A DNA stretch of 64,000 nt from the NCBI RefSeq assembly GCF_003334305.1, contig NZ_QOWS01000019.1. One strand, written 5' to 3'. Of this stretch, positions 8,237 through 9,424 are shown piece after piece. Origin of the DNA: Escherichia coli (GTDB lineage Bacteria > Pseudomonadota > Gammaproteobacteria > Enterobacterales > Enterobacteriaceae). Positions within the stretch are counted from its first letter, which is position 1; every line of letters begins with the position of its first letter. The notes under the pieces were generated by a model. It made no database searches and was not told where the DNA came from. It saw nothing but the letters and a program-made list of their open reading frames with translations. A program made the translations under genes and the position numbers.

Positions 8237-8635
8237 TTGTTTACAATGTGGCCACATGTCGCTTTATTTATTCCCTTTTATGTCAGAATATCAGGGGAGT
8301 CAGTCAAACCCGGTATGATTACTGCCCCGGTCATCCATGTTCCAGAAAATATCAGGGCATACAGGGCGCTGGTAACTGCGAATAAGGCCCTGGTCGGACA
8401 CTTTATGCCGGGAACGTCTGTAACGTGGAAACCGGTACCTTCTTCCTGGGGTTATTTTGTTAACTCTTATCTAAAGGGAGACAAAATGGCCAAATCCTGC
8501 GATTATGAAGCAATCAGGGTCTTTATTAGCGTTAATGTCGGCAAATATACCAATAACGCCATTACAGTTAATTATTCAGATAGCGTTTGTGCGACAAGAC
8601 ATTACCATTCGACGAAAATAAACTCAGGTGGTTGA
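8237..8635 (+). CDS. Hypothetical protein (unrecognised)
   Basis: 132-aa ORF in an AT-rich spacer between ompT and IS remnants; no family recognised and the coding status is uncertain. Confidence 0.2.
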   Translation: MFTMWPHVALFIPFYVRISGESVKPGMITAPVIHVPENIRAYRALVTANKALVGHFMPGTSVTWKPVPSSWGYFVNSYLKGDKMAKSCDYEAIRVFISVNVGKYTNNAITVNYSDSVCATRHYHSTKINSGG

Positions 8636-9424
8636 TATCAGAAATCAACCGTGGCTCCACCTACAAAAAAAGTTGCTGGTTTATAAATCCCTCCTTTCTG
8701 ATTAATAAGAAAACTAATAACATATGAGTGTGATTACTTGTTCAGATAAGTTAATTATCTTAGTGATTGATATTTATTTTGTTTCAGTGAAAATGATGCT
8801 TTTATTAGAAAATTTATAAATACCAAGTCGGTGGTGTTTATTAGTGTAATGGAGGGGAGTGCGTAAATCGTTCATGTAACACTTCCTTCCAATAATACTT
8901 TATAAATCAATAGATGTATGATTACTTATTTCCTGAAATATCATATATATTGCTATATTTCTTAACGAGATATTCTTATTTTATTGATAATTGCATCTCT
9001 TTTATTTAATGTAAAGCTTTCTTATTAATCTTCTAATGTATTGCAAAATGGTAGATGCTGAGTAATCAACAGACTTGTATGTAAAGTCAAGATTAACGTT
9101 GCTAAAGCACGCATCAATTTTCTGATAAAAGGATGGGGTTGTTTTTTTCGATAAAAAAAATTCTTGTCTAACCACTGGTGAAATAAGATTATTATTACCC
9201 CGAATTAATACTGAGCCTAACAATAGAATACAAAAAAAACAAAATGCTTTAAATAAGGGGAGCACTATAAGTTATCCTCTTTACTTTATGCTTACCAACT
9301 CATTTATGTTACTTTATAACATAACCCATCTTGCGTTGTAAACAGACTCGTTTTAGTTCCATGCACCTTTTGAGATCGTGACCAAATAATGGCGTTAGTG
9401 ATGTTCTTCCAGTGTCATATGGTT

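Follow-up and report, generated by a model that had tools for sequence, protein, structure and literature searches.

The genes hlyF and mig-14 are established virulence determinants of extraintestinal pathogenic and avian pathogenic Escherichia coli (ExPEC and APEC). The present study deals with about 1 kb of DNA upstream of the plasmid-borne omptin gene ompTp, in a stretch of 64,000 nucleotides of E. coli DNA (contig NZ_QOWS01000019.1) that is called the window below and represents the mig-14/hlyF/ompTp/ets virulence region of a ColV/ColBM-type IncF plasmid. Several constituents of this region have been described before. According to Zhuge et al. (2018; PMC5913352), hlyF and mig-14 form an operon in which hlyF has a PhoP-dependent promoter to itself, and ompTp is transcribed separately. 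Open reading frames (ORFs) upstream of ompT without homology in the databases were already noted in the description of plasmid pAPEC-1 (PMC2626276). Insertion sequences (IS) of the IS110 group, finally, encode a bridge RNA in their left end (LE) and carry a recombinase whose C-terminal Tnp domain contains a conserved serine (Durrant et al., 2024; PMC11208160).

In the original prediction, the DNA upstream of ompTp was seen as an AT-rich island with two ORFs lacking recognised homology, one of 132 amino acids (ORF1) and one of 87 amino acids with a hydrophobic N-terminus on the opposite strand (ORF2), situated between ompT and a nest of IS elements. Both ORFs are present in the ORF list at the positions given below, and the location was described correctly, with ompTp at 7189-8148 on the minus strand and an IS3-family nest from 9337 onwards. 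The AT-richness applies to the surroundings of ORF2 (approximately 8650-9330, 27-29% GC) and not to those of ORF1 (8200-8650, 43-44% GC). In the same way, ORF2 is without homologues beyond its own small family, whereas the DNA at 8294-8642, overlapping ORF1, is homologous to the left end of an IS110-family element, ISEc20. The stretch is better described as a mosaic than as an island of two genes. We regard it as likely that the whole of it is explained by ORF1 being an artefact over a decayed IS110 fragment and ORF2 being a real gene of the hlyF-mig-14 module. Both features are mostly ordinary: ORF1 reflects the decay of an IS of a known family, and ORF2 is a 'hypothetical' protein with reasonable comparative support as a gene. 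The constituents of the mosaic are the following:

8149-8297, minus strand: upstream region of ompTp (promoter and 5' untranslated region); holds the TTG start and the first 20 codons of ORF1
8237-8635, plus strand: ORF1, 132 amino acids, TTG start; a spurious open frame, not a gene
8294-8486, plus strand: remnant of an IS110-group LE, non-coding and ISEc20-related (74% DNA identity to ISEc20 copies)
8487-8652, plus strand: N-terminal stub of a dead IS110-family (DEDD) transposase (tblastn with the ISEc20 transposase, E 4e-10)
8653-9001, strand not applicable: AT-rich non-coding spacer downstream of ORF2, 27-33% GC
9002-9265, minus strand: ORF2, 87 amino acids, GTG start; a small gene that is probably real (O2ColV28 of pAPEC-O2-ColV)
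9142-9160: plus-strand runs T7 (9142-9148) and A8 (9153-9160) inside ORF2, the site of length changes in an eight-lineage alignment
9337-9618, minus strand: end of an IS3-family element, with its terminal inverted repeat (TGTAAACAG...) and a C-terminal pseudogene; here the IS nest begins and the ORF2 segment has its upstream limit

Comparative evidence on ORF2

Comparison between plasmid lineages makes it probable that ORF2 is a genuine small gene, evolving fast, whose product would be a basic envelope protein of 85-90 amino acids. Protein searches returned a family that consists only of proteins of this length, all of them from these islands. Entries such as O2ColV28 and the 'conserved hypothetical protein' of pAPEC-O2-ColV, pAPEC-1 and the NRG 857C plasmid fall into the same 90%-identity cluster as ORF2; they had been annotation only, whereas frame conservation, the ratio of nonsynonymous to synonymous substitution rates (dN/dS) and the link to hlyF-mig-14 are new here. 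Seven lineages were compared, with identities to the window copy of ORF2 as follows:

Window: reference
L002: 93% DNA identity
L007: 89% DNA identity
L010: 82-84% DNA identity
L006 (an Escherichia albertii plasmid type): 78% DNA identity
L022: 68% DNA identity, 49-51% amino-acid identity
L023 (E. albertii pEA29_1): 49-51% amino-acid identity

The ORF2 frame is open in all seven, with lengths of 85-90 residues and 49-91% amino-acid identity. Net insertions and deletions (indels) of -3, -6, -12, +9 and +6 nucleotides are all multiples of three, and L007 carries a compensating -1/-2 pair. The start codon occupies the same position in 7/7 lineages (GTG, but ATG in L022 and L023), and both a ribosome-binding site (AGAGGA or AAGGA) and the C-terminus are kept throughout; in the window, the Shine-Dalgarno sequence AGAGGA lies at 9275-9280, 9 nucleotides upstream of the start. 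Stop codons arise easily in DNA of 29% GC. Under neutral simulation with the substitutions observed in each lineage, ORF2 would have stayed free of stops in 20% of runs for L007, 10% for L010 and 11% for L006. The joint survival amounts to about 0.2%, or about 1% when a shared tree is allowed for, with the in-frame indels not yet counted. Against L022, dN/dS is 0.20-0.36 and third-position changes are in excess (41 vs 22 and 28). In each lineage the spacer at 8653-9001 shows lower conservation than ORF2 (70-89% vs 80-96%); it holds no ORF of more than 33 amino acids and has no Rfam match. At least 1000 contigs carry the exact window protein and 544 carry another variant that is in frame, and frameshifted forms occur on about 10-20 contigs (cluster representatives only), a small minority by contig counts.

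A number of observations weigh against a gene. Among the closer ColV lineages, dN/dS is 0.4-1.1 with substitutions spread evenly over the codon positions, and the non-coding flanks are just 5-10 percentage points below ORF2 in conservation. Slips of one nucleotide in the T7/A8 runs (9142-9160) frameshift ORF2 in several independent isolates, namely L013, L014 (Escherichia marmotae) and L015-L017, and since several lineages carry such frameshifted forms, loss of ORF2 is tolerated. An exhaustive profile search with HMMER, covering 1.84 billion representatives, returned no relatives outside the island, nor did a second search in which distant copies were added to the profile. Scans with Pfam, NCBIfam, PHROGs and PADLOC gave nothing for ORF2 except a weak match to TraE, and a profile search of the PDB gave only low-complexity matches to HIV gp41. 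The AlphaFold2 model has a mean predicted confidence (pLDDT) of 54, that is, no confident fold and too poor a model for a fold search. The NCBI annotation pipeline (PGAP) makes no ORF2 call in the current annotation. In favour of a gene, a transcript has been seen on plasmid pS88 for a lone 'hypothetical' gene adjoining ompT, pS88154, which may be either ORF2 or ORF1; it was 4.4-fold up in serum by quantitative reverse-transcription PCR, a change that was not significant (PMC3438092).

The most serious alternative is that ORF2 is not translated at all but is a leftover open frame in an AT-rich spacer or a dying pseudogene, which looks conserved through recent shared ancestry on mobile plasmid islands. 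The flat codon-position spectra and high dN/dS among ColV lineages, the recurrent homopolymer frameshift alleles, the nearly equal conservation of the flanks, the lack of homologues and domains and the omission by PGAP would all fit such a frame. So would its length, as about 2% of first-order Markov simulations of 694 bp of 29% GC DNA yield an ORF of 87 codons, which places ORF2 only modestly above chance on length alone. An untranslated frame would hardly have retained its reading frame, start position and Shine-Dalgarno sequence across seven lineages, the most distant at 49% identity, with every net indel a multiple of three, a stop-free survival expected at 1% or less, nor would it give a dN/dS of 0.2-0.36 with a third-position excess against L022. 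As judged from the identity bands, divergent lineages are few, so that ascertainment bias is limited. On balance this alternative is unlikely, although it retains some weight, and ORF2 is treated below as a probable gene.

The consequences of the homopolymer slips can be followed in the frameshifted products (P0075-P0084), which enter an alternative frame after residue ~38 that stays open to a total of 76-81 amino acids. The slips could reflect simple decay or an on/off switch.

Protein features of ORF2 and its link to hlyF-mig-14

The ORF2 protein has a lysine at position 6 followed by hydrophobic residues 7-21, and no second hydrophobic segment. The maximum of the Kyte-Doolittle profile over 19 residues is 1.6-2.3 and is reached at residues 2-3 only (four lineages). 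After the hydrophobic stretch comes I-R-G/NNN, without an A-X-A motif. The net charge is +5 to +8. In the alignment an NN(N/S) motif is invariant, and a basic helix at the C-terminus, LLQYIRxxIRKLY, is conserved. Translation would begin at the start codon of ORF2 itself, and the N-terminal hydrophobic helix would direct the protein to the inner membrane, for insertion into it or export across it; the basic C-terminal part would then lie in the periplasm or be anchored at the membrane. Of the possibilities raised in the original prediction for the two ORFs (remnants of genes, or small proteins that are secreted or have a regulatory role), a small secreted protein is the best reading for ORF2, given the frame kept in seven lineages and the single N-terminal hydrophobic segment.

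The neighbouring genes of the window are:

4676-5584, minus strand: mig-14
5647-6756, minus strand: hlyF, a protein of the SDR family
7189-8148, minus strand: ompTp, plasmid omptin outer-membrane protease (ORF list; 'omptin family outer membrane protease' according to PGAP on identical plasmids); the RefSeq start is the ATG at 8142

On ColV plasmids the order along one strand is thus ORF2, the 350-bp AT-rich spacer, the IS110 fragment in antisense orientation, ompTp, hlyF and mig-14. On the other side of ORF2, the IS3-family nest from 9337 is followed by etsABC; matches to the IS3-family end begin at 9336-9338 (blastn), and PGAP places a pseudogene for an 'integrase core domain-containing protein' at 9395-9618. 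The junction between the IS3 end and the ORF2 segment is also found in E. albertii L006.

ORF2 lies upstream of the hlyF-mig-14 operon and shares its strand. In L022 and E. albertii pEA29_1 (L023), its homologue directly adjoins the operon, 360-375 bp upstream of hlyF, in the same orientation and with no omptin between, and in another E. albertii plasmid type (L006/L012) the segment of IS3 end and ORF2 is inverted beside hlyF. ORF2 is therefore a long-standing companion of hlyF-mig-14, and most likely an ancestral part of the module. Either ompTp and the IS110 scar were inserted between ORF2 and hlyF, where they stand in ColV plasmids, or they were lost from the E. albertii forms. The difference from the described operon is that ORF2 is tied to it by linkage only: as hlyF and ompTp are separate transcription units, neither co-transcription nor co-regulation of ORF2 is implied.

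In pEA29_1 (L023 1-6805), the block of ORF2, hlyF and mig-14 adjoins pliG, encoding a g-type lysozyme inhibitor, and a gene for an S6-family autotransporter protease, so that envelope and host-defence genes are again the neighbours of ORF2. Plasmid pRM11911 (L011) was considered as the native upstream context and rejected, its genes upstream of ompT being unrelated and without a link to ORF2. It carries a divergent hlyF island (L011 2178-5090) in which ompT is internally deleted (window 7196-7405 is absent), and in place of the IS110 fragment and ORF2 the DNA upstream of ompT codes for two hypothetical proteins, one of 178 and one of 398 amino acids, both unrelated.

A role of ORF2 beside HlyF and Mig-14 in envelope remodelling would be a guess from this linkage. 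In a more elaborate form, ORF2 would be a small exported or membrane-anchored partner of HlyF and Mig-14, encoded by the first gene of an ancestral orf2-hlyF-mig-14 module and aiding the production of outer-membrane vesicles or resistance to antimicrobial peptides in ExPEC/APEC, with the homopolymer tracts switching it off in some lineages. Taken with all its parts, this proposal is doubtful. As a lineage-restricted small protein that is genetically tied to hlyF-mig-14 and omitted by the current RefSeq annotation, ORF2 is the one feature here of possible biological interest.

The whole mosaic is widespread. The 1.27 kb at 8150-9420 is present at 95% identity or more on about 650 plasmids and in 717 of 5,426 complete E. 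coli genomes, and it was found in plasmids of Salmonella, Klebsiella, Shigella and E. albertii as well. In the current RefSeq annotation the interval from ompTp to the first IS3 pseudogene is empty of genes, both ORFs having been dropped. In older records ORF2 is a 'hypothetical protein' (O2ColV28) and a 129-amino-acid version of ORF1 a 'GlcNAc transferase'.

The IS110 fragment under ORF1

ORF1 is a reading-frame artefact and not a gene. Window 8294-8642 matches the left end of ISEc20 at 74% DNA identity over about 350 bp (blastn, E ~1e-50), and a sensitive blastn search of all complete E. coli genomes gave ISEc20 matches in more than 1,900 E. coli records. In an annotated ISEc20 copy, the matched part comprises 193 bp upstream of the transposase ATG and the first 158 bp of the coding sequence; the LE remnant at 8294-8486 aligns to L004 2501-2693, directly 5' of the transposase ATG. 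The 3' half of ORF1 matches the transposase N-terminus (tblastn, E 4e-10), with residues 1-31 at 8487-8578 and, after a frameshift, residues 34-56 at 8584-8652 in another frame; amino-acid identity to ISEc20 is 52-65%. Counted in codons, ORF1 is accordingly composed of 20 from the DNA upstream of ompTp, 63 from the IS110 non-coding end and 31 from the transposase, followed by an out-of-frame tail. The suggestion that it might be a gene remnant was right in spirit, as a transposase stub is present, but the ORF itself is an artefact that includes a non-coding IS110 end.

Conservation of the reading frame across related plasmids, which the original prediction had put forward as a check, separates the two ORFs. 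ORF2 is open in seven lineages, and the ORF1 frame is broken by stops or one-nucleotide indels in 3/3 diverged plasmid lineages, L002 (93% identity), L007 (90%) and L010 (91%), which for ORF1 is the refuting outcome that the original prediction had named. Protein homology searches found no ORF1 homologues outside its own locus, there was no NCBIfam match and no Pfam match even at E 10, and a PADLOC scan of ORF1 and ORF2 gave no match. The PHROGs family phrog_34627 matches residues 84-115 of ORF1, which are the transposase stub, and PGAP labels a 49-amino-acid in-frame piece of the stub 'hypothetical' in L002.

The window fragment is thus collinear over 8294-8652 with the left non-coding end and the first 56 transposase codons of ISEc20. 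It differs in holding only about 360 of about 1,450 bp, and its coding part is frameshifted, carries a 78-bp deletion and has Asn at the aspartate of GVDVGK, which we take to be the first aspartate of the DEDD motif. The deletion, at 8638-8642, is shared by the window and L002, since transposase residues up to 65 are kept in L007, L010 and L003 (the missing DNA corresponds to L007 5630-5707, L010 2437-2514 and L003 3121-3188). Short TCAGA repeats flank it, which suggests deletion by slippage. ISEc20 residues beyond 56 had no match near the locus (tblastn), so that the C-terminal Tnp domain is absent and the gene truncated. Some 85% of the transposase gene is gone, as is the right end (RE), so that the element cannot move and represents an immobile scar. 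At 74% identity, the fragment belongs to another, uncatalogued IS species, of which no intact copy was found here. A point of caution for this assignment is that the stub, being short and degenerate, stays below every Pfam threshold; what is established is homology and not a functional domain.

The outer limit of the fragment is less clear. Comparison of four ISEc20 copies in different contexts gave an LE of about 228 bp and an RE of about 28 bp. In the window, LE homology covers about 190 bp (8294-8486) and the RE is absent, so this is a fragment and not an element. The ompTp upstream DNA shared by the window and pRM11911 (87% identity) ends at 8302, and because pRM11911 has no IS110 piece, the fragment appears to begin at about 8294-8302 and to lack the outermost ~38 bp of the LE. 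A terminus at about 8256, taken from a MAFFT alignment, was withdrawn after a shuffle test, in which 8256-8297 and the outermost 38 bp of the LE were not significantly similar. The uncertain position of the true left terminus is a further point of caution for the IS110 assignment. An old insertion-sequence scar thus lies directly upstream of ompTp and bounds the regulatory region of that gene.

A piece of the mosaic also occurs on a chromosome. In the tRNA-Phe island of E. coli EM18-18-42 (L003 3001-3385), the same junction between transposase stub and AT-rich spacer is present (window 8534-8834, 85-88% identity), and the spacer part 8638-8834 recurs there beside the same IS110 stub. This junction adjoins a truncated phosphoethanolamine-transferase gene and a frameshifted porin gene, without ompT or ORF2. 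As it is found both in the plasmid window and in this chromosome, a piece of the mosaic has moved between plasmid and chromosome.

It is conceivable that the left end, despite the loss of its recombinase gene, persists as a functional orphan bridge-RNA gene that guides an ISEc20-type recombinase in trans or acts as a regulatory RNA near the ompTp promoter. The promoter of an IS110 bridge RNA re-forms only across joined right and left ends, and because of this we infer that a bridge RNA from the fragment is unlikely. In IS621-type loci the bridge RNA is encoded in a long left non-coding end 5' of the recombinase ATG, the position that the window fragment also represents (Durrant et al., 2024; PMC11208160). 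The difference is that the two-loop fold is not shown for the fragment, and recombinase and RE-LE junction promoter are missing; similarity to the IS621 sequence itself was not sought. The orphan-RNA proposal could draw on the ~90% identity at which the LE is kept in four plasmid lineages, and on the abundance of ISEc20-type elements on E. coli chromosomes. The conservation of the LE, however, is not above that of neighbouring junk DNA. RNAalifold on six LE sequences gave an unfavourable covariation term (+1.56) and 2 compensatory pairs out of 51, so that no conserved bridge-RNA fold emerges from what are too few diverse sequences; a scan with Rfam returned only a chance-level match to an unrelated family and nothing at threshold. 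In addition, neither the outermost ~38 bp of the LE nor any part of the RE, which form promoter and donor site in intact elements, was detected, and at 74% identity to ISEc20 pairing with its recombinase is doubtful. An orphan bridge RNA is therefore very improbable, and the IS110 fragment seems inert, because right end, recombinase and junction promoter are all absent.

Database labels and promoter-like sites

The weak TraE match of ORF2 raised the idea that it is the N-terminal remnant of a TraE-type conjugation protein (TIGR02761). NCBIfam matches were obtained with ORF2 and its E. albertii homologue (E 0.006 and 0.08), both to the same part of the model, ORF2 residues 25-78 corresponding to model positions 47-101. 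The scores of 16.4 and 12.8 bits are far below the curated cut-off of 109, however, and the two matches are not independent. The exhaustive profile searches returned no TraE-like protein, a tblastn search with an approximate TraE sequence missed ORF2, and stop codon and C-terminus are conserved, so that the ORF2 protein is not truncated. Descent from TraE is hardly credible on these grounds.

The least probable reading of all, practically without standing, is that ORF1 encodes a real protein of 129-132 amino acids, the 'GlcNAc transferase' of some NCBI records: the commonest ColV allele keeps this frame open, and hundreds of contigs carry the 129-amino-acid form under that label, but it has no glycosyltransferase or other Pfam/NCBIfam match, two-thirds of it are IS110 non-coding end and transposase stub, the frame is disrupted in L002, L007 and L010, and homologues are absent beyond the locus. 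The records in question cover window 8246-8635 (e.g. WP_341494460.1), and the name is without support here. The result is chiefly of value for annotation hygiene: what databases have propagated across hundreds of ColV virulence plasmids, as a 'GlcNAc transferase' or as a hypothetical protein, is an artefact that lies over an IS110 fragment. A further peculiarity of the databases is a protein of 717 amino acids (P0024), Tex-like by eye only, that shares a 90%-identity cluster with the 49-amino-acid transposase stub and looks like a clustering oddity.

Upstream of ompTp, a promoter scan placed a sigma-70-like site at 8210-8181 on the minus strand; the number of sites was no higher than in shuffled sequences. 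The PhoP-box pattern TGTTTA-N5-TGTTTA, searched with up to 1 mismatch, has 2 perfect matches in the 64 kb vs 0.3 expected. One, at 6809-6825 on the minus strand, is the published hlyF box. The other, at 8227-8243 on the plus strand, precedes the ompTp start by 85-100 bp; it overlaps the start codon (TTG) of ORF1, and its sequence is conserved in L002, L007 and L010. Deletion of phoP had no effect on ompTp mRNA, and the ompTp promoter served as the negative control in electrophoretic mobility shift assays (Zhuge et al., 2018; PMC5913352).

Upstream of ORF2, the IS3-family terminal repeat at 9337-9345 contributes an outward TTTACA (9337-9342) on the minus strand, 18 bp from a TATAAA in the 9310-9320 region, within conserved sequence. 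The two elements, read by eye from the sequence and unscored by the consensus scan, could form a hybrid promoter for ORF2. The junction with the IS3 end is the same in E. albertii L006, and L022, which has no IS end, carries a native TTGACG at the equivalent place.

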